NCBI GenBank assembly: GCA_963755915.1
Contig: CAVWLP010000002.1
Span: 192,001-256,000, forward strand
DNA length: 64,000 nucleotides
Reading direction: 5' to 3'
From: an uncultured Phycisphaerales bacterium
GTDB lineage: Bacteria > Planctomycetota > Phycisphaerae > Tepidisphaerales > Tepidisphaeraceae
Under the pieces are notes generated by a model. The model saw nothing but the letters and a program-made list of their open reading frames with translations, made no database searches and was not told the origin of the DNA. Below, in pieces: positions 18,760 to 51,917 of the stretch (its first letter is position 1; each line of letters begins with the position of its first letter). A program made the translations under genes and the position numbers.

Positions 18760-19883
18760 TTGCTCCCTCCAATTTGGACCAGCTTGCCTTCCCCCTCCAA
18801 ATGCCTTCCATAAGCATAATACGCCGCGCATGCCCCCTCGGCAGAAACCATCGTCGCCCCCAGCGGCGCATGCGGCATGCATCGTTTCCCAAACGCCGGG
18901 CAATCATGCGGCTTCTTCAATCCGCGAAGAATCTGACCGCTGATGCACTCGCTCGATTCGGCCGTTTTGATCGTCCCTACGTCAAACGATTGCTCCGCAT
19001 CATAGTCGCTGAACTCCTGCCGCAGCCGATACCCACTCATTGGAATGTTGCCGATTCCGCGCCAGGTGCGATCGCCCACTTCAAATACCTTCTCGATCAA
19101 TTTCTTCGAATCACAATTCCCTTCATACCGCACCGCGCGGCTGTATTGGTTTTCCACCTTTCCAATCCCCGCCTCCAGCTGGTGAACCGTCATCAAAATC
19201 CCTTCCAGCATATCCAGCGGCTCAAAGCCGGTGATGACAATCGGCACCCGATACCGCTTGGCGATCGGCTCATACTCGCTGCATCCCATCACCGTGCACA
19301 CGTGTCCCGGCCCCAAAAAACCCTGCACCCGATTGCCGGACGATTCCAAAATCGCCGTCATCGCGGGTGGCACGAGCACGTGCGAAACCAAAGTGCTGAA
19401 GTTCTTTAATCCACGCTTATGGGCCAGCCACACTGCCATCGCATTCGGCGGCGCGGTCGTCTCAAACCCGATCGCAAAAAAGACGACTTTTCGATCTGGA
19501 TTAGCGGCTGCTAGATTCACTGCATCCAGCGGCGAATAAACGATTCGGATATCGCTCCCCTGCGACTTCAGGGAAAGCAAATCCCCCCGCGACCCCGGTA
19601 CCCGAAGCATGTCGCCGAAGGAAGCAAAAATGACTTCGGGCCGTGCCGCAATCGCATGCGCCCGGTCGATCATCTCCAGTGCCGTCACGCACACCGGACA
19701 CCCCGGCCCGTGCACCAGCTCGATGTCCGACGGAATCAGATTGTCGATTCCGTACTTCACGATCGTGTGGGTCTGCCCCCCGCAGACTTCCATGATGCAC
19801 CACTCTCGCGTGGTAATGTGCGCAATGGCATCGGCCATTTTTTTGGCCGCCGCCCCGTCTCGATATTCGTCTATGTATTTCAT
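18756..19883 (-). CDS. hypD: Hydrogenase maturation protein
   Basis: 'MEVCGGQTH', 'GPGCPVC', 'GFETT', 'PGHV', 'MVSAEGAC'. Confidence 0.95.
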
Positions 19884-20131
19884 GATGACGGTGTCTTCAG
19901 CTCATCGAGTTGATTCATGTTTTCCAGAAACTCAAAAACCCTCTGCGCCTCGTCCGCATCGATCTTTGACAACGCAAACCCCACGTGGACGATCACATAC
20001 TCACCGACTTGTGCGTCGGGCACGTGCGCCAGACAAACTTCTTTGGAAACACCTCCGAAATCGACTTTCCCCATGAGCACGTCGTGCTCCTGATACGTCT
20101 TGACGATCTTACCGGGAATGCCAAGACACAT
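19880..20131 (-). CDS. hypC: Hydrogenase chaperone
   Basis: 'MCLGIPG', 'VHVGFA'. Confidence 0.95.
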
Positions 20132-20134
20132 GGC

Positions 20135-23781: not shown

Positions 23782-24270
23782 TTAATCAGGCCTATAAACT
23801 GCGACAGTCCGCATGCGGCTATCATGGCGCCGCCAATACGAATCCACTGCTTTGTTTGATGCGAATCGTTGAGTTGAGAGGCCCAGGGCGATGCCGATGC
23901 CATCGAGAATTGCGGTGGCGCAAATGAAGTCAATCGCGTAGTCGACTTCGATGGACACTAATCGCAATTCATCGTCGCCTGCCAGTCGAATCCGATCCGA
24001 TCCACAGGCGCAGCGACTATCCAGTTCCGAAGTTGTCCATTGCCTTCCGCAGGCCCTGCATTGCATTTCCCAGGGCAGCGTCGTCAGTTGAAGTGCGACA
24101 CTCATCGACCCTTGTTCCTGCATGACGGCATTCCAGGCCCACTGCATCGAATGCGGTTCGATAGCTCGCATGGCCGCGGTCCGGATATGGACGCGTCGCA
24201 ATACCGCACCAGCCGGCACATGTTGCCGGGCTAAGTCCCATATCGCGATTGCTATTGACAGCTCATGCAT
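23782..24270 (-). CDS. hypA: Hydrogenase nickel incorporation protein (with ~50-aa C-terminal extension)
   Basis: N-terminal 'MHELSIA', CRAC...CACG zinc site, 'ELRLVSIEVD'. Confidence 0.85.
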   Translation of the reverse strand: MHELSIAIAIWDLARQHVPAGAVLRRVHIRTAAMRAIEPHSMQWAWNAVMQEQGSMSVALQLTTLPWEMQCRACGRQWTTSELDSRCACGSDRIRLAGDDELRLVSIEVDYAIDFICATAILDGIGIALGLSTQRFASNKAVDSYWRRHDSRMRTVAVYRPD

Positions 24271-24754: not shown

Positions 24755-26157
24755 GGACAACCTTGCCGCTTGAATTAAGGAGTTCGATATGCAGCGGCAT
24801 CTGCCCCAAGGCGTGCGTCGAGCACGAGAGACACGGATCGAAGCACCGTATCGTCGCCTCCACCCGGTTCAGCGCCCCTGCGAAATCTTATTGCCCGAAA
24901 CGTAGCGCTGGGCCGTCTGCAATATCCCGCGGTTCATCGCCAGGTTGTTATGCCCCGTCGCGATGATCAGATTCGCCCAGACGATCAAGCCGTTGTCGTC
25001 GATCCGGTAATGATGGATCAGCGTCCCACGCGGCGCCTCGGCGACCCCGACCCCTTCGCTTTGGTTCGGCCGCGCCGCGCTCGCACCTTCTTATCGAGAA
25101 TCTTCGGATCGCTCAGCAGTTGCTGCATGATCTCAAACGCAAAAATGATTTCGATCAGCCTGGCATGATGATAATGAAACGAGCTCAGCACCGCCCCGCG
25201 CTGAATTTGGCGAAACTCCGCCCACTCCTGGTCGGCGATGGGCGTTCCGCAGTGGTCGATCAGGTTCAGCCGCGCCAGCGGCCCCACCCGGTAAATGCCC
25301 TGCGGGTAGCCGAGCTTCTTGAAGTAGGGGAACTTCATGAATGTATAAGGCTCCGCCGCCTCGGCGATCAACTCCATGTATTTTTTCGGGTCATGCCGAT
25401 CGACAATGATCTCCCCCTTCGAATCCACAACGCGCAGCCACCCGTCATAATGTTCCAGCCCGCCGCTGTCGGTCACCAGCCCCATGAACAGCGTCGGAAA
25501 ATTCGCAAACGCGGCCGCTTCCCCGCTGAATCCCTCCGCGATCCGCTTGTACCACGCCAGCGTGCGCGTCGCGATGTCCAGCCCTTCCGGCATCATCGCC
25601 ATCAGCTTGTCCCGGGCGGCCACGTCCAGCGGTTTATTCACCCCTCCCGCGACATCCCAAGGCGGATGAATCTTCTTGCCACCTAAAATCTCAATAACCG
25701 TCTGCCCAATCTGCCGGACGCGGATTCCATCCCGCGCCAACTGCGGATTCTCCTTGAAGACGCCAAACAGATGCCGCCCAGCCGGATCGGCATCAAACCC
25801 CATCAACAAATCCGGCGAAGACAGATGAAAAAAGCTCAGGGCATGCGATTGCACAAGCTGCGCCAGGTTCATGATCCGCCGCAGATTCGCCGCTGACTCC
25901 GGAATCTTCACCGACAGCAAATCGTCGCAAGCCTTCGCCGACGCCGTCAGATGACTCACCGGGCAAATCCCGCACGTCCGCGCCGTCAGCGACGGCATCT
26001 CCGTCATCGGCCTCCCCTCGCACAGCTTCTCAAACCCGCGGAACTGCGTCACATGAAACTTCGCATCGGTGACGTTCCCACTATCATCCAGTTGGAGCGT
26101 AATCTTCGAGTGCCCCTCGATTCGCGTCACCGGGTCAATCAAAATCTCGCGTGGCAT
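24735..26157 (-). CDS. hoxH: Group 3d [NiFe]-hydrogenase large subunit (frameshifts at ~24890-25080)
   Basis: 'DPVTRIEGH', L1 'RTCGICPVSH'. L2 'DPCLSCSTHALGQMPL' plus a cleavable tail ending at TGA 24735, read manually. Confidence 0.9.
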
Positions 26158-26190
26158 AAAACCTACTTTCCCAACACTACTTTTCTAGCC

Positions 26191-26739
26191 CTACTTTCCA
26201 AATCTAGTCATCGTCTCCGGATGCGGCATCCGTCCCGCCAGCAGCTCACCCACCACATAAAAAATCGTATCTGCCGATGGTGGGCACCCCGGCACAAACA
26301 GATCCACTTTCACCACCTCATGAACCGGCCGAACCCGATCCAGCAGCACCGGCAGATTCATCGTCGGTTTCTGTTTCTGAATCTCCGTATTCTCAAAATA
26401 AGATCGCTGAAAAACCGACTCGACGGTAAACGGATTCCGCATTGCCGGCACATTCCCCGTCACAGCGCAATCCCCCAGTGAAACCAGGATTTTCGTGTGC
26501 TGCCTGATCTTCTGGATCTTCTCGATATCCTCATCCGTGCTGACCGACCCCTCCACCAGCGTCACGTCGACTTCATCAGGAAATTCCTTCTGATCCACCA
26601 GCGGGCTATAAACCAGGTCCATCAGGGGGATAAGGTCCAGCAGCCGCTGGTCGAGGTCCAGAAACGACATGTGACACCCCGAGCACCCATCGAGCCACAC
26701 CGTCGCAACTCGCGCTTTTTTGGTCGTTTCCGCGCTCAT
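26191..26739 (-). CDS. hoxY: Hydrogenase small subunit
   Basis: '[11 protein letters not shown]', 'GDCAVTGNV', 'PGCPP'. Confidence 0.92.
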
Positions 26740-27455
26740 TGGTTGTTCCCTCTCATCCGCGTGAGATACGGCAGGAAATCCTTGTCCTTCTCCATCTCCG
26801 AAACCGCCGTCCCCTTGCGCGTCAGCGCACCCGTCGGGCAAACCGCGACGCATTTGCCGCAGCTCGTGCAGGTCTGCGAATCACCCCACGGCTGGTCGAG
26901 GTCGATCACCACCCTCGACGCCACGCCGCGCCCCGCCACGTCCCACGTATGCGCTCCTTCAATCTCATCGCAAACGCGCACACATCGCGTGCACAGCACG
27001 CACCGGTTGTGATCCAGCCGGAACAGATCGTGCGACGAATCCATCTTGAGCTTTGGATACAGATATGGAATCTCAAGGTGCGTGATCCCGGTCTCGCTCG
27101 CCAGGTTCTGAAGATCGCAATGACCGTTGGAAACGCACACCGAGCAGACGTGATTCCGCTCCGAGAAAAGCATCTGCACGATCATCCGCCGATAGTTTTG
27201 CAAGCGAGGCGAATTGGTCGTGATCTCCATCCCCTCAGTCACCTTCGTCACGCATGCCGGCAGGAGCTTGTTGACTCCCTTTACCTCCACCAGGCAAAGC
27301 CGACACGCCCCCCACGTCGACAGCCCCTCCAGAAAGCAAAGCGTCGGCACCGCGACCTTATTCTGCTTGCAGACATCCAGGATCGTCTCATCAGCGCGCC
27401 CGCTGACGTCCTTGTCGTCCACCTTTAACGTCACTACCGCTGTCGCAGCGCTCAT
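26736..27455 (-). CDS. hoxU: Diaphorase Fe-S subunit
   Basis: 'PTLC...GACRLC', 'HVCSVC...C', two [4Fe-4S] motifs. Confidence 0.92.
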
Positions 27456-29099
27456 GAGCGTATCTCCGCTAAAATGGGCAGGGGCTTGCGCGATGCATAT
27501 TCGTCCGCGCACAGAAGTTCGTCATATTCCTTGCGGAAATATCGCAGTGTCGTCAGAACCGGGTTCGGCGCTCATCCCCAGCCCGCACAAGCTCGTGTGC
27601 TTCACCATGTCGCACAACTCTTCCAGCAGCGCCACGTCCCGTGCCGTCGCCTTCTTCTCGATGATCTTCTTTAGCAGATCGTGCATCTGCACCGTCCCCA
27701 CTCGGCACGGAATGCACTTCCCACACGACTCAGTCATGCAGAATTCCATGAAAAAGCGCGCGACGTCGACCATGTTCGATGTCTCGTCCATGATGATCAT
27801 CCCCCCCGATCCCATGATCGACCCCACTTTCATCAGCGAGTCGTAATCGACCGGCATGTCCAAAAACTGTTCCGGAATGCACCCGCCCGACGGTCCGCCC
27901 GTCTGCACCGCCTTGAACTTCTTCCCATCAGGAATCCCCCCGCCCATCTCAAACACAATCTCCCGCAACGTCATCCCCATCGGCACTTCGATCAGCCCGG
28001 TGTTATTCACTTTCCCCGCCAGCGCAAAGGTCTTGGTCCCCTTGCTCTTCTCCGTTCCGATGCCGGCATACCAGTCGCCGCCGTTGCGGATGATCGGCGC
28101 GATATTCGCAAACGTCTCCACGTTGTTGATCAGCGTAGGCGCATCCCACAGCCCCGACTCTGCTGGAAACGGCGGCCTTGGCCTCGGCTGACCTCTCTGC
28201 CCGGTAATGCTGGCAATCAGCGCCGTCTCCTCCCCGCACACAAACGCTCCCGCCCCAAGTCGAATCTCAATTTTCAAACTGAGCGGCGTGCCAAAAATAT
28301 TCGCGCCCAAAACCCCCTGCCTCTCCGCCTGCCGGATCGCGACCTTCAATCGCTTCACCGCTAGCGGATATTCCGAGCGCACATAGATATATCCCTGCGT
28401 CGCCCCCACTGCATACGCCGCGATCGCCATTCCTTCCAGCACCCGATGCGGATCGCTCTCCAGCACGCTCCGATCCATGAAGGCCCCGGGATCCCCCTCA
28501 TCGGCGTTGCAGATCACATATTTCGTCGTCGATTTCGCCTTCGACACCATGCTCCACTTCAGCCCCGTCGGATATCCCGCCCCGCCCCTTCCGCGCAGAC
28601 CGCTTTTGGAAACCTGTTCGGTCACTTCCGCGGGCGTCATGGTCGTCACCGCTTTAAAAAGCCCCGCATATCCATCCGCCGCGATGTATTCCTCGATCTT
28701 CTCCGGATCGATCTCCCCCGAATTCTCCAGCACGATCTTCTTCTGCCGCTTGAAAAACGGCACATCCGTCCGGCAAACCAGCCGCTGCACCGACTTGTCC
28801 ACAGAAATCCCCCCCACAATTTCCTTCGCATCCCCCGGCTTTACACCCTGATACATCACATTCTTCGAAGAAACCGAAACCAGCGGCCCCGCCGCGCACA
28901 ATCCCATACACCCCACCCCCTTCGCCTTGCATTTCCCCTCCAGTCCCGCCGCTTTGATCTCCCCCTGCAACGATTCCAGCACCTGATCGCTCTGCGACGA
29001 CAAACACCCCGCCGCCACGCACACACGCACATGATTCGGGCACGCCTCGCGCGACTGCTTCTCCGTCTCGGCAATCTTTTCAAGCTCATCGAGCGTCAT
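27452..29099 (-). CDS. hoxF: Diaphorase NAD/FMN subunit (frameshift near 27570)
   Basis: N-terminal thioredoxin-like 2Fe-2S domain, '[13 protein letters not shown]', '[10 protein letters not shown]', '[10 protein letters not shown]'. The tail '[11 protein letters not shown]' is in another frame. Confidence 0.9.
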
Positions 29100-29595
29100 G
29101 GCTCACCTGCTTCTCTACCCGACCAATCAGATCCGCGCTGGAGGTCTTTCCGATTACCGCCCCATCCAGCACCGCCGCCGGCGCCAGCCCGCAAGACCCC
29201 AAACACCGCGCCGTCAAAATCGAAAGCTCCCCATCCCCCGTCGTCTCCCCCGCCTTCACCTTGTACTTTGCTTCCAGCGAATCCATCAATTCAGTCGCCC
29301 CCTTGATGTAGCACGCCGTCCCTAGGCACACGACGCACGTATGCTTCCCCTGCGGCTTCAACATGAAGTGGTGATAAAACGTCGCCACCCCATACACTTT
29401 GCTCAGCGGCAGATTCAGCGACCCCGATACAAACCGCATCGCCGTCTCATCCAGATATCCAAACGATTCCTGTGCCGTGTGAAGCGTCTCGATCAGGCTG
29501 TTCCCCGCATACCCATGCCGCCTCATCGTCGCATCGACAATCTTCCACCGCTTGTCCCCCGACGGCATCGCCTGTTGTTTTGCTGGTGCGATCAT
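29086..29595 (-). CDS. hoxE: Bidirectional hydrogenase NuoE-like subunit
   Basis: 'VYGVATFYH', 'CLGTACY', '[10 protein letters not shown]'. Start 29595 or 29616. Confidence 0.9.
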
Positions 29596-29771
29596 GGCCT
29601 TCCCGTCACTTTCCAATAAAACCGTGATCCTCAGTTCGCGATACCATACTTTTGTAGTTGCACAATTCCAATACTTCAGCGTTCCAACAACACATCAATT
29701 CACGCTTACCTGAATCACGCTTGAACCGAATCATTGCGACGCATCCTATCGAACCGTTTATTCACTTCGCT

Positions 29772-38317: not shown

Positions 38318-39352
38318 TAGAGCATTTTCATTTATCATGTAGCGTATACCCTGTGTGCCTGAAGAAACCTTCGCAGTCGGAGGCGGTGACCGCGGCCAGT
38401 GCTTCCTCCACCGCTTGGCCCAATGTCTCCACCGTCCGGGCCGCCAGTGAACGAAGCTTCTGCTTCACCTTGGACCACATCGGTTCGATGGGGCTGAAGT
38501 CGGGACTGTACGGCGGCAGATACAGCAGACGGGCCCCCGTGGCCTCGATCGCCTGGCGAATCCCGCTGACTTTGTGGGATTGCAGATTATCCATGATCAC
38601 CACCTGCCCGGGCCGCAGCGTGAGGACCAGGGCGTCCTGGACAAAGTTGCGGAAGATCTCGCCATCGCAAGGAGCGTCGACGGTCACGGCGGTTTGAACG
38701 CCGCGAAGCGTCATGGCCGCGATGATGGTCAGCACCTTCCAATGCCCATGCGGCACGGCGCTGACCAGACGATCGGACCTGAGGCATCGTCCACGCGTCC
38801 GCATCATGTTGGTCACGGCGCAGCTTTCATCGATCACCACAAGGTTTTTCAGCGGTATGTCCTTCAACTGCTCGAACCAGACTGCCCGCTGCGCCTGGAC
38901 GTCGGGCCGCTCCTGTTCGGCGGCGTGGACCGACTTTTTTTAAAAGAGAACTTCTGCTTCCGCAGCGCCATCCACAACGCGCCGATGCTGATGCCGATTC
39001 CCAATTCCGTTTTGAGCCGGTGTCTCAGTTCCTCCAACGTCGCATCGGGCTGACGACGCACCTTCTCCAGCAGCCAATCACGAGCGGCCTGATCCAGCTT
39101 GGGTTTGGCGCCCGGAATGGGCCGCGGCTCGATGCTGCCGTCTTCCCGGCGACGTTGTTTTAAACGTCGCACCCATGCCGGCGACACTTCGAATTGCTCC
39201 GCGACTTTTTTGGTGGGCTGGCCCCCATCGCACGCGGCCAGAACTCGCTTACGAAGATCCAAAGAATACGCTTCCATGCCGACGATCTCCTGTCGGCATT
39301 TAACTTATCGCATCCTTGCCGCTGGCGCTAGAGGCTACGTGAAAATGCTCTA
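38318..39352 (-). mobile_element. IS630-family insertion sequence
   Basis: Terminal IRs TAGAGCATTTTCA (38318-38330 and 39340-39352), TA at both ends, enclosing the transposase ORFs. Confidence 0.92.
38328..39277 (-). CDS. IS630 transposase, HTH ORF + DDE ORF joined by a probable programmed -1 frameshift
   Basis: 'AYSLDLRKRV'. Slippery TTTTAAAAAAAG at ~38934-38945 gives 'KKKSVHAAEQERPDV'. DDE motifs 'VIDES', 'IMDNLQSH', 'YLPPYSPDFSPIE'. Confidence 0.88.
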
Positions 39353-39585: not shown

Positions 39586-42295
39586 CTAAAACCCAATCTC
39601 CGCACTGACGCCATTGTCTGTGAGACTCCGCGTCAATTTAAAACCCGCCTTCTCACAGACGTGCTGCATTTCCAGATTTTCGCCCATGATGATCGCCGAC
39701 ACCCGGCCGATCCTCTCCGCGCGTGCGGCCTGGAGGAGCAGGTCGATGAGCTTTGTGCCCAGTCCGCGCTTCTGCCAGGGGTCGCTGATCACCATTGCGA
39801 ATTCGGCGTCGTCGCCCTCGGGTAGTTTGCTGAGGCGGCCGATGCCCATGATGAATCGCTCGCCTTCTTTGGTGCGACCCTCGGCGACGAGGGCCAGTTC
39901 GCGATCGTAATCGTTGAAGCAGACGCGGATCAGCCGCTCGTGGGAGACGCGCTGGCTGAGGTTGATCGGATGGAAATAGCGAAGCATCACGCTGCGGTCG
40001 GACAATTCCTTGTGAAACTTCACCAGCAGCGGCTCATCTTCGGGACGGATGGGGCGGATGGTCACCGGCGTCTTGTCGTCCATCGTCCACTGCGTCACGT
40101 ACTGCGTGGGATAGGGCCGGATCACCGGCCCGGGCAGATCGGCCGCGGTTTTTTCGGAGCCCCACAAAACCGTGCGCACGTCGACGGCAATGATGCGATC
40201 CGACGTCGCGATCAGCGGATTGATCTCCACTTCCTTCACCCACGGCTGCTCGATGACAAGCTGGCTGAAGCGAACCATGATGCGGCAAAGCTGGCCGATA
40301 TCCACCGGCTTGCGCCGCGCACGCCCTGGAGGGCCTTGAAGATTTTCGTCTGCTCCATCATCCGCCTGGCCAGCGTCGCGTTGAGCGGCGGCAGGCCCAG
40401 GGCGCGGTCCTTCAAAACTTCCACGAGCTGGCCACCCAGCCCAAAGAGCAGCACGGGACCGAACTGCGAGTCGGGGCTGCTGCCGACGATCAGTTCATAA
40501 CCATTTTTCCCATCGATCATCGGCTGAACTGTCACGCCCTGGAAATGCTCGGCCCCGGCCTTCTTTGTCACCGATTGTCGAATCTCTTCAAATGCGCGTG
40601 AGACTTCGGCCGCGTCCATCAACTGGAGCTTGACGCCGCCCACGTCGGTTTTGTGCGTAATCGTGTGCGAAAAAAGTTTCAGCGCGACGGGGAAACCCAT
40701 CTTTTCCGCAGCCCGCGCGGCATCGGCCGGCGCCTTGGCAACCACGGTTTCGACAACGGGAATCCCATACGCGGCCAGCAGCCGCTTGGATTGGAACTCA
40801 TCGAGGAGCGTTTTTCCGGCGGATTTAGCGGCGGAAATGATTTCGGCTGCCGCGGCACGATTGATGCTCTCACCCTCGTCGTCCCCCAGGGCAGGCGTTT
40901 CGTACAACCCGCGGAGGTTGTAGGTGTACTTCCACATATATTGAAACGCCTTGGCCGCGCCGTCGGGAAAATGAAACGTGGGGATACCCGCGCGGCTGAG
41001 AATGGCGCGGCCGGCAGCCACCTCGGCCCCGCCCATCCAGCTTGCCAACAGCGGCTTGCCTTCGAGCTTGGCGAGAGCCTTCACGGCCTCGGCAGTCTGG
41101 GTCGGGTCGGTCATGTCCTGCGGGGTGAGCACCGCGAGGACGCCGTCATTGCCGCAATCCTCCGCCACCGACTTGATCGCCTTCGCATAGCGCTCGGGGC
41201 TGGCGTCGCCGAGCACGTCGATCGGATTATTATGGCTCCACTGGGGCGGGAGAAATTCATCCAGTGATTTCTTGAGCTCCGGCGACAAGGCGGCCAATTC
41301 CCCGCCGGATGCGAGCAGGGCATCGGTCGCGAGGACGCCGGGCCCGCCGGCGTTGGTGACGATCGCCAGCCGCGGGCCCGCGGGCCGGGGCTGTTTCGCC
41401 AGGACATCGGCCATGGAAAACAAATCGGAGATGCTGTCGACGCGTAATACGCCGCTGCGGCGGAACGCAGCGTCGAGCACTTCGTCGCTGCCGGTTAACG
41501 ACCCCGTATGCGACGCCGCGGCCTTCGTGGCCGCTTCGGATCTGCCGGCCTTAATCACGATGATCGGCTTATTGAGCGACACCTCGCGCGCGGCGGAGAG
41601 AAACGACCGCGCATCGCCGACCGATTCCATGTAGATCAGGATGCTGCGCATGCGCGGATCGTCGCCGAAATAATCGATCAGGTCGCCCCAGGTGACATCG
41701 AGCATCGACCCCGTCGAAACATAGGCGCTGAACCCGACGGCTTCGTTGAGACTCCAGTCGAGGACGGCCGTCAGCAGCGCCCCGCTCTGGCTGATGAAGG
41801 CCACATTGCCGGGCTTGGCGATTCCCTTGGCGAATGTCGCGTTGAGGCCGGTCAGCGGATTCATCACGCCCAGGCAATTGGGGCCGATGATTCGCATCCC
41901 GCCGCGCCGCGCTGCTCGCCGACACGATGTTCGAGTTCCAATCCCTCCTTGCCGAGTTCACGAAAACCGGCGGAGATGACAATGGCGCCCTTTACTCCGG
42001 CGTCGGCGCATTGGCCGATGATTCCGGGCACCGCGCCGGCGGGCGTGACGACGACCGCGAGATCCACTTTCTCCGGCACGGACTTGATATCCGGATAGGC
42101 CTTTACGCCCAGCACGCTGGAGCGCTTCGGATTCACGGGAAAGACGGTTCCGCCGAAGGGGCTGGCCATCAGATTCCACATGACCGTGCGCCCGACGCTT
42201 CCGGCATTTTCGGTGGCCCCAATCAGGGCGATGGTTTTGGGGGCAAAAATGGGAGTGAGTGATCCCGGCTTAATTCCCCGAATTTCTTTTTTCAT
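39586..42295 (-). CDS. ADP-forming acetate-CoA ligase / GNAT acetyltransferase fusion (frameshifts at ~41905 and ~40310)
   Basis: CoA-binding domain, 'IIGPNCLG', 'SQSGA', 'ASHTGS', 'NPIDVLGDA', ATP-grasp 'HKTDVGGV', C-terminal GNAT 'QKRGLGT'. Confidence 0.88.
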
Positions 42296-42332
42296 AGCGC
42301 CATCCATTAAATCACCTTCAACTTTCTTCGCA

Positions 42333-42422: not shown

Positions 42423-44966
42423 ATGAAAACTCTATCGACCCCTACACTTCGCCGGCTATACCCGTTCATCGCGGCAATCGCACTTCTTGCCTTAGTGTTT
42501 CCTTCGGCAAGTTTCGCCAGCGAAGCCGATCTTCCCCCCATCCCCAATCTCAACAGCGCTAAATTCTTCGGATTTATCGGTGGTTGGAATCTCCTGGCCA
42601 TCGGTATGTTGATCTGCTTCGCAGGTTTGGCCTTCGGCCTGACCATATATCGCCGGCTCAAATCATTGCCCGTCCATTCGGCGATGGGCCGCGTTTCCGA
42701 GACGATTTATGCCACCTGCAAAACTTATCTCAAAACCCAGCTCAAATTTATCCTTTTGCTTGAGCTGTTTATTGGCGCCGTGCTGATCGTCTATTTCGGC
42801 TTCCTGACCACGGACGCCGCCGGACAGCACATGACTCCCGTTAAGGTGCTCACGATCCTGGCATTCAGTCTGATCGGCATCGCCGGCAGTGTTTCTGTGG
42901 CGTGGTTCGGCATGAGAATCAATACCTTCGCCAACAGCCGAACCGCCTATCAATCCCTGCGCGGTAAGCCATATCCACTCTATGCGATTCCTCTACAAGC
43001 CGGCATGAGTGTCGGGATGGTTCTCATCAGCGTCGAGCTGCTGATGATGCTGGTGATTCTCCTTTTCATTCCCGCCGCTTATGCCGGCCCTTGTTTTATC
43101 GGTTTTGCGGTTGGTGAATCGCTCGGCGCAGCCGCGCTGCGCGTTGCCGGCGGAATATTTACCAAGATCGCCGACATCGGCGCGGATCTCATGAAGATTG
43201 TGTTCAAGGTTCAGGAAGACGACGCCCGCAACCCCGGCGTCATCGCCGACTGCACCGGCGACAACGCCGGCGACTCCGTCGGCCCGACTGCCGACGGTTT
43301 CGAAACCTATGGCGTCACCGGCGTGGCGCTGATCACCTTCATCCTCCTGGCCGTCCGACCCGAGCTTCAGGTTTCGCTGCTGGTCTGGATCTTCGCGATG
43401 CGCCTAGTCATGGTGATCACCAGCGGCGTTTCCTACGCGATCAACGAATTTTTCACCCGCGCCAAATATCTCAACGCGACGGATATGGATTTTGAGCACC
43501 CCCTTACCAGCCTGGTTTATGTCACCAGCCTGGTAAGCGTTTTTACCACCTACCTGGGCTCCTTTGCCCTGATTCACAATCTGGGCGAGGGGCTCTGGTG
43601 GAAACTTTCGACCATTATCTCCTGCGGCACAATCGCCGGCGCTGATCCCGGAATTCACGAAGATCTTTACCAGCGTCAAGAGCCGCCATGTCCGCGAGAT
43701 CGTCACCGCCAGTCGCGAGGGCGGTGCATCCCTTAATATTCTCAGCGGGCTCACCGCCGGAAATTTCTCCGCCTACTGGATGGGCGGAATCGTCATTGGC
43801 GGCCTCATGGCTGCGGCCTATGCGTTTGCCAATCTCGGCGGATCCGCCGGCGTCGCCTCCCTCCTCAATCCCAGCGCCCAGGTCGCCGTTGCTGTATTTG
43901 CCTTCGGCCTCGTGGCCTTCGGATTTCTCGGCATGGGGCCCGTCACCATCGCCGTCGATTCCTACGGACCTGTCACCGACAATGCGCAAAGCGTTTATGA
44001 GCTCAGCCTCATCGAACAGATTCCAGGCATTGAGCGACAACTCAAAAACGAACTTGGCGTCAATGTGGATTTCGCGCGTTCCAAGCTGCTGCTGGAGCAA
44101 AACGATGGGGCGGGAAACACGTTCAAAGCCACGGCCAAACCAGTCCTGATCGGGACTGCGGTGGTCGGCGCCACGACCTTGATCTTCTCCATCATCATGA
44201 TGCTTACCAGGGGCCTCACCGACACGACGGCCATCGCCAAGCTCTCGGTGCTCCACGCCCCGTTCCTCCTTGGACTCATCGCCGGCGGCGCGGAAATCTA
44301 TTGGTTCACGGGCGCAAGCATGCAGGCCGTCGTCACCGGCGCTATCGCGCCGTTGAGTTCATCAAGCGCAATATTCACCTCGAAGGACAGCAGGCCGCTT
44401 CCGTCGCCGACAGCAAACGCGTGGTTGAGATCTGCACCCGATATGCCCAGGCCGGGATGCTCAACATTTTCTTCGTCGTCTTCTTCAGCGCCCTCGCCTA
44501 CGCCTGCGCCGAGCCCTTCTTCTTCATCGGTTTCCTGATCTCGATGGCGACTTTCGGGCTCTTCCAGGCGATCTTTATGGCCAACGCCGGAGGCGCATGG
44601 GATAACGCCAAGAAGGTCGTCGAAGTCGAGCTGCGCCAGAAGGGCACCGATCTCCACGCGGCCACGGTGGTTGGCGATACCGTCGGCGATCCTTTCAAGG
44701 ACACCTCCAGCGTCGCCCTGAACCCAATCATTAAGTTCACCACCCTTTTTGGTCTGCTCGCCGTTGAACTCGCGACGAGTTTGGATAAAAACCCCAACCT
44801 TCCGCTCCACCTTACGGCGTACCTTGCAATCGGATTCTTCATGCTCGCGCTGGTCTTCGTCTGGCGCTCTTTCTACGGCATGAGGATCCAGAAGGATTCC
44901 GCCGTCGAAGGCAGCGGGCCCACCGAGGTAACTGGCCATCCGCCGCTTGCGATGGCCGAGCACTAA
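42423..44966 (+). CDS. hppA: Membrane-bound ion-translocating pyrophosphatase (frameshifts at ~43645 and ~44340)
   Basis: '[14 protein letters not shown]', '[20 protein letters not shown]', '[10 protein letters not shown]', 'GGAWDNAKK', '[12 protein letters not shown]'. Confidence 0.92.
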
Positions 44967-44979
44967 CTACGCCGCTCCC

Positions 44980-45387
44980 ATGAACACCACCAAACAACCT
45001 CACACCGGATGGATGAAGCTTGCACTTCGCGCACAAATCTGCACGCAGTGTCATCCGGCAGATCCTTCGGCAGAACCCGACCCTCGCTCATGCGAAACGA
45101 ACTGCGCATTTTTCGTCCATTTATCCCGGTTGGCGCGCCTGCTGAAGCGCTATCAGAATAGGCCGCCAAACGGGTACGAAGAATTTGCCATTCACCTGCT
45201 GCGTGAGTCTGGGGGAAATTCGGGTTCAAAGGCAGTTCTCGATTACGCGGGAGATGCGTTGGCCGTCCTCGAAAAAATCGCCGAGCTGACTGAACTGCCC
45301 GCGGTTCAGGATCCGCAGCATGACTGTATCCGTCGCGATCTCGCACTGACGCAGTTGCAGATCCACCCTGAAGCGAGGCCTTCATGA
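44980..45387 (+). CDS. Cys-motif hypothetical protein
   Basis: 13 bp after hppA; 'ICTQCH...CETNCAFF'. Confidence 0.6.
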   Translation: MNTTKQPHTGWMKLALRAQICTQCHPADPSAEPDPRSCETNCAFFVHLSRLARLLKRYQNRPPNGYEEFAIHLLRESGGNSGSKAVLDYAGDALAVLEKIAELTELPAVQDPQHDCIRRDLALTQLQIHPEARPS

Positions 45388-45493: not shown

Positions 45494-46311
45494 TCACCCA
45501 CCGATGAGCGGCCAAATTATGTGAAGAACGATGTCCGCGCTGAAATGGCAAACCATGGCCGCTTCGAGCCCCATGCTCCAGTAAAACCAGCCGAATACGA
45601 GGCCACCAAGTCCATTGAGCACTAGGGCACGCGTGACAAGCATGGCGTCGATATGAAGCCCGAGGGCGGCCGTGGCAGGCAGATGGCCTAACCCGAAAAG
45701 GATTGCAGCGAGAAGATTGGCGATCCATAGCACTGCCAACCCTGGAGGGCGGCACTTTGAGCCGCTGACGATTTGAAGAAGCAGGCGAAAAACGAAAGCA
45801 TAAAGAGCCGCAGCAGGATTTCTTCGGTGCTGCCGCCATAGAACGCGGCAAGAAATCCGGCCCAGACGGGGGCGCTGCCCGGAGGCGTTTTTAGTTGCTT
45901 GAACTCGGCTGCAAGCTGCGCTGCGAACAGGGTCTTTTCAAGCGCAACAATTGCAACACCAACGACAATTCCGGCGATGATTGCTTTGAACGAAAATCGA
46001 CGGGCCAGCGGCCAGCTTGGATCGCCCGCCAGCCAGCGTTCGACGAGGGGCAATCCCAAGCCAATCCGACCGGCGATGAGCAGCACCAAAGCCGCGAAAA
46101 TTCCGCAGAATATGGTGGTCAAGATCCATTGAATTGGAATGAGCGCCAGTAGGGGCAGCGGAAGTTTTACGCTATGGAGGCTTGGAGATTGAATCGCCAG
46201 CGCATAGGGGGTAACCAGAATCGTACTGAGCAGAATGGCAACCAGGAGAACGCCAAGAAGACGCCAATTGAAATGCGAGTGCGCCACCGAGGGTAAAACT
46301 TCACTTGTCAT
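45494..46311 (-). CDS. CPBP (CAAX/Abi) intramembrane metalloprotease (frameshift near 45770)
   Basis: 'TEEILLRL', 'FGLGHL', 'GLEAAMVCHFSAD'. Confidence 0.8.
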
Positions 46312-46391: not shown

Positions 46392-47099
46392 TCAGCCAAG
46401 AAAATCGTCCGACGTGTGGTCTACCAGGTCTTCACGGCGGTGCCGTTTCGTGAAATTCAGTTTTTCGATCCATGAAATCCACTCATGGATCCCATCCCCA
46501 GTACTCGCGGAAAGTGCATGAATTTCAGTGGAGGGATTAATTGATCGAACGTCTTTGCGGAAGACATTGCTGTCGAAATTCACGAGGGATTGCAAATCAG
46601 TCTTGGTCAGCAGCACCGCGGAGGAGGCTACAAGAAGCTTGTGATATTCTGCGGCCTTGTCGTCTCCACCGCTCACCGCAAAGACCGCTACAGTCGCGTC
46701 CTGCCCCAAATCCTGAAGCGGCGCCAGCCCACCGGCGGTTTCGATCAATACAGTATCGAACTTGTGCAAATCCAGTTTTGTCACGATGGGCCAGATCAAA
46801 CTCGCTTTCGGTATCGCGCCCTCGATGGCGGTAACAAAGCCGCACAAATCTCGTAATCGCTGCACGTCCCTGGCCGGTGCTGGATTGACCACCACCACCG
46901 CAACGCGCCGCGGCGCTGACAGCCGTCTTAGGGTCTGCACAATCAACTCGGTTTTGCCCGATCCGGGAGGTCCGACAATTCGAAGGCCCACAGCGCTCGC
47001 GCAACTTAATGCCTGTCGAATTAAGGCGCCGGCGGGAAGATGATGGATCCGCGGCAAATCGGCGTTTGGGTTACGGGCATCTTCATGAGACTGTGTCAT
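46392..47099 (-). CDS. HypB-like G3E GTPase, atypical (paralogue 2)
   Basis: P-loop GPPGSGKT, 'GGDDKAAEY', TKTD, 'LSASTGDGIHEW'. The CH and C metal ligands are absent. Confidence 0.75.
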   Translation of the reverse strand: MTQSHEDARNPNADLPRIHHLPAGALIRQALSCASAVGLRIVGPPGSGKTELIVQTLRRLSAPRRVAVVVVNPAPARDVQRLRDLCGFVTAIEGAIPKASLIWPIVTKLDLHKFDTVLIETAGGLAPLQDLGQDATVAVFAVSGGDDKAAEYHKLLVASSAVLLTKTDLQSLVNFDSNVFRKDVRSINPSTEIHALSASTGDGIHEWISWIEKLNFTKRHRREDLVDHTSDDFLG

Positions 47100-47827
47100 A
47101 AGGCACTCTTCGTGGTTGAGCCATCGGTGGATCGCGACCAGCTCACGACGGGATGGAGTATTCGATCAGCGCGGCAGCGGGCGCAATTCGCCAGCCGATG
47201 CGCCTCCATCCATTCGAGCCAGTCTTTTATGCCTTCCCCGGAATGAACCGAAACACAAAGGATTGAGAGGTTCGAGTTAATTCGTTTGATGTCAAGGGCA
47301 AAAGCTTGCAAATCAAAGGTGACGAACGGCAATAGGTCGATCTTTGTCAACAGGATCAAATCAGAGTGGCTAACTAGAATGGGAAAATCATTCGCTTTAT
47401 CGTCGCCGCCGGCAGCGCTGAAAACAGCGACTCTGAGATGCTCACCGAGGTTAAATTCTCCAGAATCGATCGAATTGCCATCGGCCTCGATCAGCAGAAA
47501 ATCGAGGCCGGAGAGGTCGACCCTGGGCAATGCATCACGAATACCTAGCGCATTGGCACGGTTCGTATTGATCGCCACGGCAGGATAGCCATACCGACAA
47601 ATCTTAGCGATGTGCCGGTCTGCCGCAGCGTCGCACATCATCACTGCGATACGCAGTGGCGGTGCAAGACGCAGCATCAACTCTTCAATGACCGAAGTTT
47701 TCCCCGATCCAGCCGGACCGATTATCGAAATCACCGTGACGCCCGCCGCATCGAAAGCTTCACGATTGGCGCGCGCGGCCTGTTGCTCAGCCAGCTCGGA
47801 TCGATCGGGGATTTTCTGTGAGTTCAT
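47096..47827 (-). CDS. HypB-like G3E GTPase, atypical (paralogue 1)
   Basis: 'AARANREAF', GPAGSGKT, 'FNLGEHLRV', 'GGDDK', 'TKIDLLPFVTFD'. The CH and C metal ligands are absent. Confidence 0.8.
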   Translation of the reverse strand: MNSQKIPDRSELAEQQAARANREAFDAAGVTVISIIGPAGSGKTSVIEELMLRLAPPLRIAVMMCDAAADRHIAKICRYGYPAVAINTNRANALGIRDALPRVDLSGLDFLLIEADGNSIDSGEFNLGEHLRVAVFSAAGGDDKANDFPILVSHSDLILLTKIDLLPFVTFDLQAFALDIKRINSNLSILCVSVHSGEGIKDWLEWMEAHRLANCARCRADRILHPVVSWSRSTDGSTTKSAL

Positions 47828-47830
47828 GGC

Positions 47831-48106
47831 CTAGCCCCCTTTTTTCGCTGATGGCGGCTCTGAGAGGGCATTGTCGCCGGTCGTTGAGTGATCGGACGTG
47901 TGGCTCGCGCAATTCCTCCAAAAGATCAATTCGCAAGCGATTAACGCACCGACGGGTAGCATTGGTAGAAGAAGCTCCGGATTGTTCTTCACGACGATGA
48001 GGCCGACCAAGAGTGCTGCAACAGTAATTGTTCGACGAAGATAAGCCTCAATTCGAGACCACAGCGATGGCCTGGGCCCGGCGGCGCCTTGGTGCAACGA
48101 ATGCAT
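47831..48106 (-). CDS. Small 2-TM hypothetical protein
   Basis: Two hydrophobic helices; ends 3 bp before the HypB-like gene and contains its RBS. Confidence 0.5.
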   Translation of the reverse strand: MHSLHQGAAGPRPSLWSRIEAYLRRTITVAALLVGLIVVKNNPELLLPMLPVGALIACELIFWRNCASHTSDHSTTGDNALSEPPSAKKGG

Positions 48107-48286
48107 CACAAACGGGCCTCGGCGTCGCAGCAACTGCGAAATTCCGCGTGCGTGTCCAAAGGCGCCCCGCCGCCAACGCGGGCGCGGAGGGCGGGGTGAG
48201 ACGGTTCGGGCGCTTCGCAAGACCCGCCGAACGGGAATAATCTCGCCAGATAAATTGAGTATTCTTCGCATAAAACACCTTCGGGT

Positions 48287-48456: not shown

Positions 48457-49065
48457 TTACGCCAGTTGCCCGGGGTCGATGACAAGGCCTATCACTTTCC
48501 GCTTATCCAGCTTCTTCAGCTCCTCCGGAATGTGTACATGCATCGCCAGCGAAATGTTCGCCACGCGAAATCCCTGCATGGTAAGCAGCATGCTGGTGGG
48601 CGTCTTCCCCGTTCGGGAAACGCCCACCAGCACCGCATCTGCCTCCGCAACAGATTCCAATCCAAGGCCGTCATCGTGTTCCAGCGCAAAGGTCATTGCA
48701 TTGATGCGACCACAAGAGGCGCCGTCCACCCGATGCAGCCGCTGATGATCCGACATCACCTCCACCCTTGCGGCTTCAGCCAGAAAATCCACCGCCGGGC
48801 CGGTCAAATCCCAACATGGGATATTTTCCTTCTGGCACCGCGCGGTGATCTGCTTTTTCAGATCTCTCGAAACCACCGCGTGAAAAACAATTCCCGGCCG
48901 GGTGGAAACAGCGTCAAGGGAGGGAGCAAGGCGTTTGGGCTCATTGACGAAGGGCTTCGTCAACACCTCAAAAATCCCAGCCGGGAATTGCGTGAGGAAG
49001 CTCGTCACCATGTGCCGCGCAAGATTTCCCGTCGAATCCGAAAGGATATAAAGCGGGATCGGCAT
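48457..49065 (-). pseudogene. ppsR: PEP synthase/PPDK regulatory kinase-pyrophosphorylase (DUF299), 3'-truncated
   Basis: 'ILSDSTG', 'INAMTFALEHDDG', 'LVGVSRTGKTPTS'. Stops at 'DPGQLA*IR' with no usual C-terminal part in any frame I could read. Confidence 0.75.
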
Positions 49066-49335
49066 GTCCGGCTCGTGTTTGACGCGCTTTCTCATCGGGG
49101 TAACCGTCTTCATGATGTTTCGCTCACATCCTTCGTATACGATTCAGCCGATACAGTTCGTGGCAGCCCCAGACCCCCATACGGGCAAGAACCGCCACTC
49201 CAACGACGGCTGCTAAAATCCCTAATGTCTTGAATATGGCGAACCTCCATCGTTAAACAACTGCACGCTGTGAACGGCATTCCTTCCCATCCACACCGTC
49301 CTGAGAATTATCGAATCGCCAGCAGCCGCCGAATA

Positions 49336-49425: not shown

Positions 49426-51301
49426 ATGCCCCAAAAGCAAAGAGCGGCCCCGTCCGCCGGCGCAAGCGATTTCGCTTATTCATTTTATATTTCAAAAACG
49501 GGCAAGATTTCATGGGATTGGATTGCCGGGCCGTTTATGCAGATCACCGGTCATCCGTCCGACGCATTCCAAAAGGGGGGCTTGCAACCCTTCATCTATC
49601 CCAAGGACAAGCCACTACTCCACGGTCGCACCGCCGCTTTGCTCGCGGGTCAAGGGGATGTGCGCGAATATCGGCTCATCACGGCCGGTGGACATCTGAA
49701 GCGAGTCCGTGATTTTGCCCAGCCGCTGCGCAAGGAGCAGGGCGGCGATCTCGTGATATTCGCAGCCGTCCAGGACATCACTGCCGGGAAGCGCGTCGAA
49801 GGCGAGATGCGCCGCATCGCCTCGATCATTGAGAATTCCCAGGACGCCATCATCGACATCAATCTCGACGGCGTTATCGTCAACTGGAATCGCTCAGCCG
49901 AGCGGATTTATGGTTACTCCGCCCAGGAAGTTAAGGGGCGCACCATTTCCATGCTGGTTCCGGCCAATCAAATGAATGAGATCACGCGCATACTCGCGCG
50001 GGTGCGGCGGGATGGTTCCATGCCGCGCACGGAAACACAGCGTATCCGCAAGGATGGAACGACGATCTCCGTAGCGCTCACTGCGGGACCAGTCTATGAT
50101 GCCGCTGATCAGCTCGTGGGCGCATCGCTCATCAGTCGGGACATTTCGGAATTGAAACGAGCGGAATCCGCCCTCCAGGAAAGCGCAAGAAAAACCGAGG
50201 CCATCCTCGATACGATGGTCGATGGCGTCATCACAATAGATGAACGCGGGATCGTCGATTCCTTTAATGCCGCCGCGGAACGCTTATTTGGATACGTTCC
50301 TTCCGAAGTAATCGGACAAAACGTCAAAATGCTGATGCCCGAGCCATATCACGGCGAGCACGATCAATATCTCCTGAACTACCTTCGCACGGGAAGAGCG
50401 AAGATCATCGGCATCGGGCGCGAAGTCGTCGGCAAAAGGAAAAATGGTTCGATATTCCCCATGGACCTTGCCGTGAGCGAGGTATTTCTCGGCCCCAGAA
50501 GGCTTTTTACCGGAATCGTCCGCGATTTGACCGAACGCAAGCGCCTGGAACGCCAGATCCTGGAAATCAGCGATCGCGAACAGCAGCGCATCGGGCAGGA
50601 TTTGCACGATGGGCTGGGCCAGCAACTCGCGGGGATCGGATTCCTGAGCAAATCGCTGGAGCAGCGGCTAACCAAAAAATCCGCGCCCGAATCCGGCGAT
50701 GCGCGTGAAATCGCCGATCTCGTGTCGGATGCCATCGCCCAGGCGCGGGATGGCGCACGGGCTGAACCCCGTTGACATGTCGGCGACCGGGCTCATGTCA
50801 GCCCTGCGCGAACTTTGCAGCACGATCGAGCACACGTTCCGGATCAAATGTGAGCTGGCATGCGATGATCCCGTGCTTCTGGGTGATGGGGCCGTCGCAA
50901 CGCACCTGTATCGCATCGCCCAGGAGGCGGTGAACAACGCCATCAAGCACGGGCAGGCCAGAAGTATTGGTGTTGTCCTGAAGAGGGCGGGAGATACAAT
51001 TACAATATCAGTCCGGGATGACGGCGTTGGGTTTCCCGATGTGCTCCCGGAAAAAAAAGGAATGGGTCTGCAAACGATGCGCTATCGCGCTGCTTTGGTT
51101 GGTGCGACCCTTTCGTTTTTGCGGATTCCTTCGGGCGGGACACGTGTGGATTGCTCCGTGAAAGAGAGTGATTCGGCAGTCCCGGGCTATGTTTATGGCA
51201 AAACCTTCCTCAAAGTTTCCTCAAATGAATCAATCTCCAAAATTGGACCCAAAGCCGTCCGCAAAGACCGCTCCACGAAAAAACGTCTTCGTCATCGATG
51301 A
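49426..51301 (+). CDS. Triple-PAS sensor kinase with FixL-type heme-PAS and HisKA_3 core (frameshift near 50745)
   Basis: Third PAS 'GQNVKMLMPEPYHGEHDQY...IIGIGREVVG'; H-box 'IGQDLHDGLGQ'; 'RIAQEAVNNAIKH', 'DDGVG', 'GMGL'. Confidence 0.88.
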
Positions 51302-51917
51302 TCATCCGGTTCTGCGGCAAGGTCTCGCCCGCCTCATTAATGACCAGAGTGATCTGGTGATGTGCGGCGAAGCCGATTCGCCCGTCGAAGCGATGCGATT
51401 GCTTCCCTCGGCCGGCGCCGATGTGGTCATCGTCGATCTTACTCTGCGCGGCGGAGATGGGCTGGAACTGTGCAAGCAAATCCGCGATCGGTTTCCCAGG
51501 CTGCCGAGTCTCGTGGTTTCTATGCACGATGAGAGCCTTTACGCCGAACGCGCACTTAAGGCCGGCGCTTGCGGCTACGTGATGAAACAAGAGCCTCAGG
51601 AAACCGTCATCGCCGCCATTCGCAAAGTACTCAAAGGGGACGTTTATCTAAGCGAAAAAATGTCTGCCAAATTGCTCCGCAGCTTTTCCGGGCCAAAATC
51701 GGATACCGAATTGGCACCTCTGGACCGTCTAACGGACCGCGAACTCGAAATCTTTCGCCTCATAGGCGATGGGCAAAGCGTTCGCGTGATTGCCGAGAAA
51801 CTTTTCCTCAGTACAAAAACAGTCGAGGCGCATAAGGAACATATCAAGCAAAAGCTCAATTTGAACAGCAGCAATGAGCTTCTCCAATACGCCATTGAGG
51901 CCAGACCGCGAACATGA
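51225..51917 (+). CDS. NarL/LuxR-family response regulator
   Basis: 'VIDDHPVLRQG', 'IVDL', 'SMHDE', 'YVMK', HTH 'LTDRELEIF...LFLSTKTVEAHKEHIKQKL'. Start uncertain. Confidence 0.93.
   Translation: MNQSPKLDPKPSAKTAPRKNVFVIDDHPVLRQGLARLINDQSDLVMCGEADSPVEAMRLLPSAGADVVIVDLTLRGGDGLELCKQIRDRFPRLPSLVVSMHDESLYAERALKAGACGYVMKQEPQETVIAAIRKVLKGDVYLSEKMSAKLLRSFSGPKSDTELAPLDRLTDRELEIFRLIGDGQSVRVIAEKLFLSTKTVEAHKEHIKQKLNLNSSNELLQYAIEARPRT

Follow-up and report, generated by a model that had tools for sequence, protein, structure and literature searches.

A Pair of HypB-Like Genes in a Planctomycete Genome

The DNA analyzed here is a 64,000-nucleotide stretch (hereafter, the window) of contig CAVWLP010000002.1, positions 192,001 to 256,000, from assembly GCA_963755915.1 of an uncultured planctomycete of the family Tepidisphaeraceae, and its subject is a tandem pair of genes, A and B, encoding relatives of the nickel GTPase HypB that lack the HypB metal ligands. 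The order of genes around the pair (Table 1) is PDRP, encoding the regulatory kinase-phosphorylase of pyruvate, phosphate dikinase (PPDK)/phosphoenolpyruvate (PEP) synthase, followed by F26, encoding a small predicted membrane protein, then A, B, and a CPBP protease gene. The stop codon of A overlaps the start codon of B (ATGA), in agreement with the translational coupling noted in the initial annotation, and only 3 nt separate the stop codon of F26 from the start codon of A, so that F26, A, and B appear to form a single, tightly coupled unit.

Both proteins match the CobW/HypB/UreG family PF02492 (E 2e-9 for A, 5.8e-12 for B), and among solved structures they come closest to HypBs, those of Archaeoglobus (2wsm; E 2e-27 for A, 1.2e-15 for B), Methanocaldococcus (2hf8), and Helicobacter (4lps). 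In the hypB equivalog model TIGR00073, with a curated NCBI cut-off of 121.2 bits, A scores above the cut-off (153.4 bits) and B below it (109.1 bits), the canonical HypBs of relatives scoring 194-280 bits. The UreG model TIGR00101 is missed by both (49.4 bits for A and 27.3 bits for B, cut-off 204.2), the MeaB models TIGR00750 (16.8 bits, cut-off 240.75) and NF006958 (15.7 bits, cut-off 329) are missed as well, and the MeaB family of Pfam, PF03308, gives 23.8 bits for B, with no single stretch passing alone. Both the A and the B families possess the hallmarks of the G3E GTPases (SIMIBI class), these being the G1 P-loop GxxGxGK[ST], a G3 motif with Glu (ExxG), and the G4 motif [NT]KxD. Judging from these profile and motif matches, A and B are HypB-derived G3E GTPases. 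In public records, A-type proteins are named “hydrogenase nickel incorporation protein HypB” and B-type proteins “GTP-binding protein.”

Loss of the Metal Ligands and Retention of the GTPase Residues

The G-domain metal site of HypB consists of a Cys-His pair and one more Cys, namely Cys95, His96, and Cys127 in MjHypB, with the pair equivalent to Cys106/His107 in HpHypB and to Cys166/His167 in EcHypB (PMC7055735). The ligand positions were compared among 33 proteins of the A family, 42 of the B family, and 18 canonical HypBs from relatives (one of these from an unpublished genome, G014, of which the count is independent), with the motifs placed through HMMER alignments to 2wsm, 2hf8, and 4lps and through a MAFFT alignment with the canonical HypBs. 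While the first Cys, the His, and the second Cys are each present in 18/18 of the canonical proteins, the A family has the first Cys in 0/33 (a three-residue gap), the His in 2/33, and the second Cys in 0/33, and each of the three is found in 0/42 proteins of the B family. In the window copies, “NTNRANA” of A and “EGAIPKA” of B align to the Cys-His segment, at the site of the three-residue deletion, and “EADGNSIDS” of A and “ETAGGLAPL” of B align to the canonical “ENVGNLICP,” placing Asn/Ala and Asp at the ligand positions of A, and gap/Ile and Ala at those of B. The column counts bear out the initial description of two HypB-like GTPases devoid of the Cys-His/Cys site: in a proper alignment the ligands are not conserved but truly lost, in both families.

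As to the GTPase residues, the P-loop Lys and the G3 Glu are kept throughout (A 33/33, B 42/42), no protein of either family departs from the two Asp residues of GGDDK or from the G4 Asp, the G4 Lys is found in 33/33 A and 34/42 B proteins, and the G3 Gly in 23/33 and 42/42, respectively. The window copies retain the P-loop, GDDK, and TKxD motifs, as had been stated initially. The HypB dimer patch, represented by Leu171 and Val175 in MjHypB (PMC7055735), is also recognizable in the alignment, the Leu in 32/33 A and 33/42 B proteins and the Val in 33/33 and 41/42. Compared to HypB (TIGR00073; 2hf8, 2wsm, 4lps), their closest sequence relative, A and B are of the same length and share the G1-G4 motifs, with Glu in G3, and the dimer-patch Leu and Val. 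Besides the missing Cys-His pair and second Cys and the deletion at the Cys-His site, they differ from HypB in having no N-terminal Cys or His-rich nickel site, in being encoded outside the hyp operon, in the presence of a canonical HypB alongside them in most relatives, and in having relatives in genomes with no HypD detected.

One further conserved feature is an aromatic-x-Gly C-terminus, found in the B-family proteins and in the products of single B-like and A-like genes, with the last Gly nearly invariant. It may be a docking tail.

Selection, Phylogeny, and Distribution

Ratios of nonsynonymous to synonymous substitutions (dN/dS; NG86, pairwise, only pairs with dS<1) range from 0.048 to 0.266 for A (9 pairs) and from 0.138 to 0.267 for B (10 pairs), compared to 0.100-0.240 for the canonical HypBs of the same genomes (8 pairs) and 0.109-0.168 for phosphoenolpyruvate carboxykinase (PEPCK; 6 pairs). 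As these values, 0.05-0.27 for the pair, are like those of canonical HypB, they indicate that A and B are under purifying selection and not decaying, and the relaxed selection that the initial annotation had envisaged as a possible outcome was not found. An explanation by functionless, decaying hypB duplicates could point to the loss of the defining metal ligands and to the score of B under the TIGR00073 cut-off, but it is contradicted by the selection analysis, as well as by the reading frames of A and B, which are intact although the assembly abounds in indel errors elsewhere, by the GTPase residues invariant across the 33 A and 42 B sequences, and by the conservation of the pair across at least 5 genera; we consider it scarcely credible. 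The A and B of the window are full-length and have all the motifs. One special case is presented by a sub-clade of four genomes (G010, G008, G002, G003), in which A has degenerate G3 and GDD motifs and yet the lowest dN/dS (0.05-0.09), constraint that fits a non-catalytic partner in a heterodimer.

In a quick maximum-likelihood tree (91 rows, without an outgroup; support by the Shimodaira-Hasegawa-like approximate likelihood ratio test, SH-aLRT), A-type proteins form a clan (SH-aLRT 97) that takes in a third, degenerate paralog and the single gene of G020, B-type proteins form another (SH-aLRT 96-99) that takes in single B-like genes of six other genomes, and canonical HypBs form a clan of their own (SH-aLRT 91), separate from both. 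The same groups of genomes recur within the A and B clans, suggesting that the pair diversified together. Both clans occur only in Tepidisphaeraceae (Planctomycetota), and the group carrying the pair would be one of soil planctomycetes, as the naming of the nearest proteins in the databases suggests. Orthologs of A and B lie side by side in further members of the genus and in no fewer than four additional genera; conservation of the pair elsewhere was a point that the initial annotation had proposed to check. Wherever both genes are present, they are adjacent and their order is the same.

The third HypB-like paralog of the A clan has the degenerate motifs GPPRSGKT, EGSGDM, ADGPDQ, and LTMVD, lies on the strand opposite to canonical hypB, approximately 0.8 kb beyond it, and is found in the same four genomes as the degenerate A gene (Table 1).

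Loss of Canonical hypB and the Question of the Hydrogenase

The window encodes a Hox-type [NiFe] hydrogenase along with hypA, hypC, hypD, hypE, and hypF, as the initial annotation had it, and the pair is located 22 kb from hypA. The lack of a canonical hypB, noted for the window, extends to the whole 6.6-Mb assembly, in which the only TIGR00073 matches are A and B. In a relative, G004, the order is hoxEFUYH, a protease-like open reading frame (ORF), hypA, canonical hypB, hupE (PF04955, 193 bits), and an ORF for a 169-aa membrane protein, while in the window the latter begins 137 bp after hypA, and the 50-residue tail of the hypA ORF can be aligned with the C-terminal end of HupE (E 3e-7, 43% identity across 42 residues). 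From this synteny and the HupE-like tail, a deletion has run from the 3′ end of hypA through hypB into hupE, removing hypB and approximately the first 146 codons of hupE. Its junction is confirmed by a 421-nt short-read contig of a soil run that bridges it, identical to positions 23799-24219 with zero differences. As short-read contigs of two or three runs supply an extra C at 24874 and another at 25074, the two frameshifts in hoxH are assembly errors, and thus the hydrogenase gene is intact while the genes for the nickel GTPase and the nickel permease are gone. The naming of A-type proteins as HypB would lead to the mistaken conclusion that this genome has a HypB, the gene for which was deleted.

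Two more differences between the assembly and the short reads fall into this region. An extra GC at 27567, near the 3′ end of hoxF, marks an indel error of the assembly. At 23881, within the hupE remnant, two runs from a single study gave contigs (X2, 167 nt, and X4, 57 nt) of the same consensus that match rightward and differ leftward, an unexplained variant or strain difference.

A function in [NiFe]-hydrogenase maturation, with the pair as a metal-free nucleotide switch remodeling HypA that may here replace the deleted HypB, would be consistent with the score of A above the TIGR00073 cut-off, with the survival of Hox (intact) and of five hyp genes (hypA, C, D, E, and F) in a genome that lost hypB and hupE, with the presence of HypD in 14/16 genomes that have the strict pair or a B ortholog, and with the third A-clan paralog adjoining canonical hypB in G010, G008, G003, and G002. 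There is also a precedent for a HypB without a nickel site, the Mrp/MinD-type ATPase HypB of Thermococcus kodakarensis, for which no such site is reported to have been identified, the general model being that NTP-bound HypB remodels HypA (PMC7055735, PMC12134894). Unlike A and B, however, this HypB belongs to another NTPase family, is an ATPase, is encoded with hyp genes, and is dedicated to hydrogenase.

Against such a function, a canonical-scoring HypB (whole or in frameshift pieces) coexists with the pair in 11 of the 14 other genomes that have a B ortholog (counted at >=49% identity, i.e., at least 49%), suggesting that the pair did not evolve as a replacement for HypB; of the remaining three, one has a canonical HypB piece at a contig end, and G006 (59% complete) and G050 have none. 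Metal-less genes, as we call those scoring 85-180 bits in TIGR00073 with frameshift pieces and the third paralog excluded, are found in 30 of the 141 genomes of the family (ligand positions were read directly in 26 of the 30), and HypD was not found in 10 of these 30, including G085 (98% complete, 1 contig), G099 (95%), and G101 (97%). The pair has no operon link to hyp genes, its tight links being to PEPCK, F26, and the gene for a Cys-rich protein, F7. In addition, hypB mutants of Escherichia coli are rescued by high nickel (PMC12134894), and so the loss of hypB needs no substitute. On these grounds the initial suggestion that the pair is the metal-site-less HypB of the lineage is not supported, and we regard a hydrogenase function as improbable.

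Genomic Neighborhood

Neighborhoods were compared among 26 genomes with fetched loci, representing 15 genera. In 13 of them (G001, G002, G003, G005, G006, G008, G010, G011, G012, G020, G057, G101, G154), the gene for GTP-dependent PEPCK (PF00821/PF17297) ends 1-37 bp before the A-type gene or is separated from it only by F26, homologs of which lie between PEPCK and A in G001, G005, G006, and G154. F26 has no match in Pfam or NCBIfam. The most widespread neighbor of the metal-less genes is a two-component system, a PAS-HisKA_3 histidine kinase with a NarL-type response regulator, orthologs of which are found in the locus of 14/26 genomes; its best NCBIfam matches, all sub-threshold, are FixL, MctS, and MctR. 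Other recurrent neighbors in relatives are the PPDK/PEP synthase regulatory protein, DUF2721, and a Pat-like acyl-CoA synthetase-GNAT protein, joined in one sub-clade by a P1B heavy-metal ATPase. The CPBP protease gene follows B only in the window genome.

The F7 family comprises proteins of approximately 125-145 aa with CxxC and CxxxC motifs, the Cys residues of CxxC and the last Cys of CxxxC being invariant. F7 lies directly downstream of the B-type gene in 10/26 genomes and is present in 19/30 genomes with metal-less genes versus 5/111 without. The initial annotation had suggested that a small metal-binding protein might complement the pair; F7, Cys-rich and so positioned, supplies a candidate, for which a metal role is a possibility. 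Among 1.84 billion proteins, 146 representative relatives of F7 were found at E up to 0.001. The window copy matches no Pfam family, with chance-level matches only among 8 members, and has no NCBIfam match, no PDB sequence match better than E 0.5, and no ESM Atlas match; of 24 relatives compared with Pfam, 22 of typical length have no family and two longer ones have scattered weak matches. Its structure model is helical and of low confidence (mean predicted local distance difference test 60.9, predicted template modeling score 0.43). F7 is possibly a metal- or redox-holding adaptor.

These neighborhoods can also be read differently, with A and B as separate homodimeric GTPases that are merely neighbors, the A type serving PEPCK and the B type acting with F7 and the two-component system. 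In G020 and G101, a single A-type gene does come immediately after PEPCK, at a distance of 1 bp and 37 bp, respectively, single B-type genes occur with the two-component genes and/or F7 in G085, G015, G140, G122, G076, G136, and G099, and A and B form distinct clans. Points against such independence are the ATGA overlap in the window, the constant adjacency and order of A and B, their congruent trees, and the strong constraint on A proteins of degenerate catalytic motifs only where B adjoins. We view this reading as a less likely, if serious, alternative.

Table 1. Coordinates of the genes and features discussed, in the window unless a relative is named.
Feature	Position	Strand	Remarks
Gene A, HypB-family G3E GTPase, 243 aa	47096-47827	minus	GPAGSGKT, IEADGN, AGGDDK, LTKIDL; no Cys-His/Cys metal ligands
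Gene B, HypB-family G3E GTPase, 235 aa	46392-47099	minus	GPPGSGKT, IETAGG, SGGDDK, LTKTDL; no metal ligands
Aromatic-x-Gly C-terminus of B	46392-46400		
F26, small predicted membrane protein	47831-48271	minus	longest ORF 146 aa; conserved part is the C-terminal ~70 aa
PDRP, PPDK/PEP synthase regulatory kinase-phosphorylase	48457-49113	minus	upstream of F26; neighbor conserved in relatives; truncated
PAS-HisKA_3 histidine kinase and NarL/LuxR-type response regulator	49426-51917	plus	kinase split in assembly (49426-51301, 2 pieces)
CPBP/Rce1-like membrane protease gene	45494-46311	minus	two ORF pieces; PF02517 on 45494-45739 piece
F7, 135-aa Cys-rich protein, unnamed family	44980-45387	plus	GWMKxxLRAQICxQC...CExxC...PPxGYEEF
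H+-pyrophosphatase	42423-44966		3 pieces
Pat-like synthetase-GNAT	39586-42307		3 pieces
DDE_3 transposase ORF	38328-38867		between DoxX gene and Pat-like gene
Hox-type [NiFe] hydrogenase	25018-29616		
hypA fused to hupE (nickel permease) remnant	23782-24270	minus	deletion junction near 23934
HypF, HypD, HypE	17683-22393		in G004, C12:64885-69662
Third A-clan paralog in relatives	L026:2839-3537 (G010); L023:13-846 (G003); G008:C201:5407-5997; G002:C421:1094-1681		
Canonical-scoring HypB in relatives, no HypD found	G085:C1:3093433-3094062; G101:C7:430-1059; G122:C12:574224-574862		
Loci of relatives with P1B ATPase/oxidase neighbors	L033:4488-6794 (G004); L056:4910-6988 (G122); L045:2433-5029 (G015); L052:4919-7308 (G050)		

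A Proposed Metal-Free GTP Switch with a Different Client

It seems probable, if modestly so, that A and B are old, lineage-specific paralogs of HypB that act as a metal-free GTP switch or chaperone, probably as an A-B heterodimer, for a client other than hydrogenase. They have retained the G3E GTPase machinery and the dimerization patch, whereas the metal site of the dimer interface has disappeared. They would work as a GTP-gated switch, or as a G-protein chaperone, without carrying the metal themselves, similar in principle to MeaB, and their clients would probably be other than [NiFe] hydrogenase. In the window genome, A and B would be made in fixed proportion from one F26-A-B transcript, and the heterodimer would probably pair across the former metal interface, an arrangement favored by the coupling through ATGA, by the unvarying adjacency and order of the genes, by their congruent trees, and by the constrained A proteins with degenerate motifs. 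The likeliest partners or clients would be GTP-dependent PEPCK, encoded directly upstream of A-type genes in relatives, and F7, encoded directly downstream of B-type genes in relatives, with the FixL/NarL-like two-component system probably controlling the group. The pair is thus probably a repurposed G3E switch and not a nickel inserter, the alternative in the initial annotation that fits better than a HypB proper.

MeaB/MMAA provides a parallel in the way of working, and only in that. A G3E dimer and G-protein chaperone of B12-dependent mutases, it gates the loading of a cofactor that it does not itself bind and that, as reported, it shows no evidence of touching (PMC9164220), and its gene adjoins that for its client enzyme, as A-type genes adjoin that for PEPCK. 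Unlike MeaB, A and B produce only marginal matches to its models and have no B12 enzyme encoded nearby. UreG and the COG0523 proteins have the G3E fold and motifs in common with A and B, which, in contrast to these, possess neither the CxCC motif nor the C-terminal domain of COG0523 and fall far below the TIGR00101 cut-off.

A number of observations weigh against this reading of a heterodimeric switch with a non-hydrogenase client. The direct observations cover the family, the ligand loss, the GTPase residues, purifying selection, the phyletic and neighborhood patterns, and the loss of canonical hypB. The anatomy and evolution of the pair are clear, while its function, including A-B binding in the heterodimer, the GTPase activity, the clients, and any metal, is what we infer. 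The heterodimer of the initial annotation is likewise a prediction. A number of genomes, G136, G050, G085, and G015 among them, have a B-type gene and no A-type gene, and the reverse holds for G020 and G101, suggesting that each can work alone and that the pair may amount to two separate homodimers. The A and B of the window are themselves too diverged (dS saturated) for direct dN/dS. In the window genome, PEPCK is encoded 1.6 Mb from the pair, and F7 is inverted, approximately 1 kb from B, and thus the tight links seen in relatives have been broken there. The 26 sampled genomes are not independent, eleven of them coming from one genus. HypD is more common with metal-less genes (20/30 genomes) than in the remaining genomes (38/111), and in genus g1 the pair is located 14-38 kb from the hox/hyp cluster, suggesting that a loose hydrogenase link is possible, although we read the HypD excess as weak, because the genomes are related and 11 come from one genus. 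Likewise, the HypD-less G085, G101, and G122 carry a canonical-scoring HypB elsewhere (260.9 bits in G085), suggesting some nickel metabolism in these.

A canonical-scoring HypB with no HypD detected is also found in G041, G087, G149, G148, G082, G016, and G070, and several genomes have an extra, distant HypB-like gene (approximately 70-78 bits) 1.5-2 kb from the canonical-scoring one. These genes may represent another nickel enzyme system.

A selected, HypB-derived pair with no metal site at the interface would demonstrate that a metallochaperone scaffold can be re-used as a plain nucleotide switch, and the genes beside it, for PEPCK and a Cys-rich protein of an unnamed family, would point to new candidate clients. 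The G3E GTPases have been sorted into four branches, UreG, HypB, MeaB, and COG0523, all tied to nickel, cobalamin, zinc, iron, or cobalt (PMC9164220), and, in the accessible portions of the full-text literature, we found no description of a HypB-type GTPase without the Cys-His site, of a HypB heterodimer of paralogs, or of a G3E gene beside PEPCK. A bolder and, in our estimate, unlikely proposal is that the metal-less clans represent a fifth functional branch of the G3E GTPases, serving central carbon metabolism instead of a nickel enzyme. The A type would then be the G-protein chaperone dedicated to GTP-dependent PEPCK and would gate either the metal loading or the activity of that enzyme, and the B type would form, along with F7, a metal- or redox-handling module under the FixL-like two-component system, the two fusing into one heterodimeric machine where both exist. 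In the window genome, with hypB and hupE deleted and Hox intact, such a pair might moonlight on HypA.

Further Observations

In some genomes, the surroundings of metal-less genes include genes for a P1B heavy-metal ATPase, for cbb3 oxidase (FixO, CcoG-like), or for cytochrome bd, neighbors that hint at a respiratory or metal-homeostasis link. The splits or truncations of the genes for the H+-pyrophosphatase, the Pat-like protein, the histidine kinase, the CPBP protease, and PDRP (Table 1) are probably assembly errors of the same kind as those in hoxH. The DDE_3 transposase may be linked to the local rearrangements, i.e., the moved PEPCK gene and the inverted F7. HypF, HypD, and HypE of the window are 43-44% identical to those of G004, compared to 70-84% for the Hox subunits, and HypD scores fall into two classes (approximately 500-520 and 465-478 bits), suggesting that two hyp sets circulate in the family.

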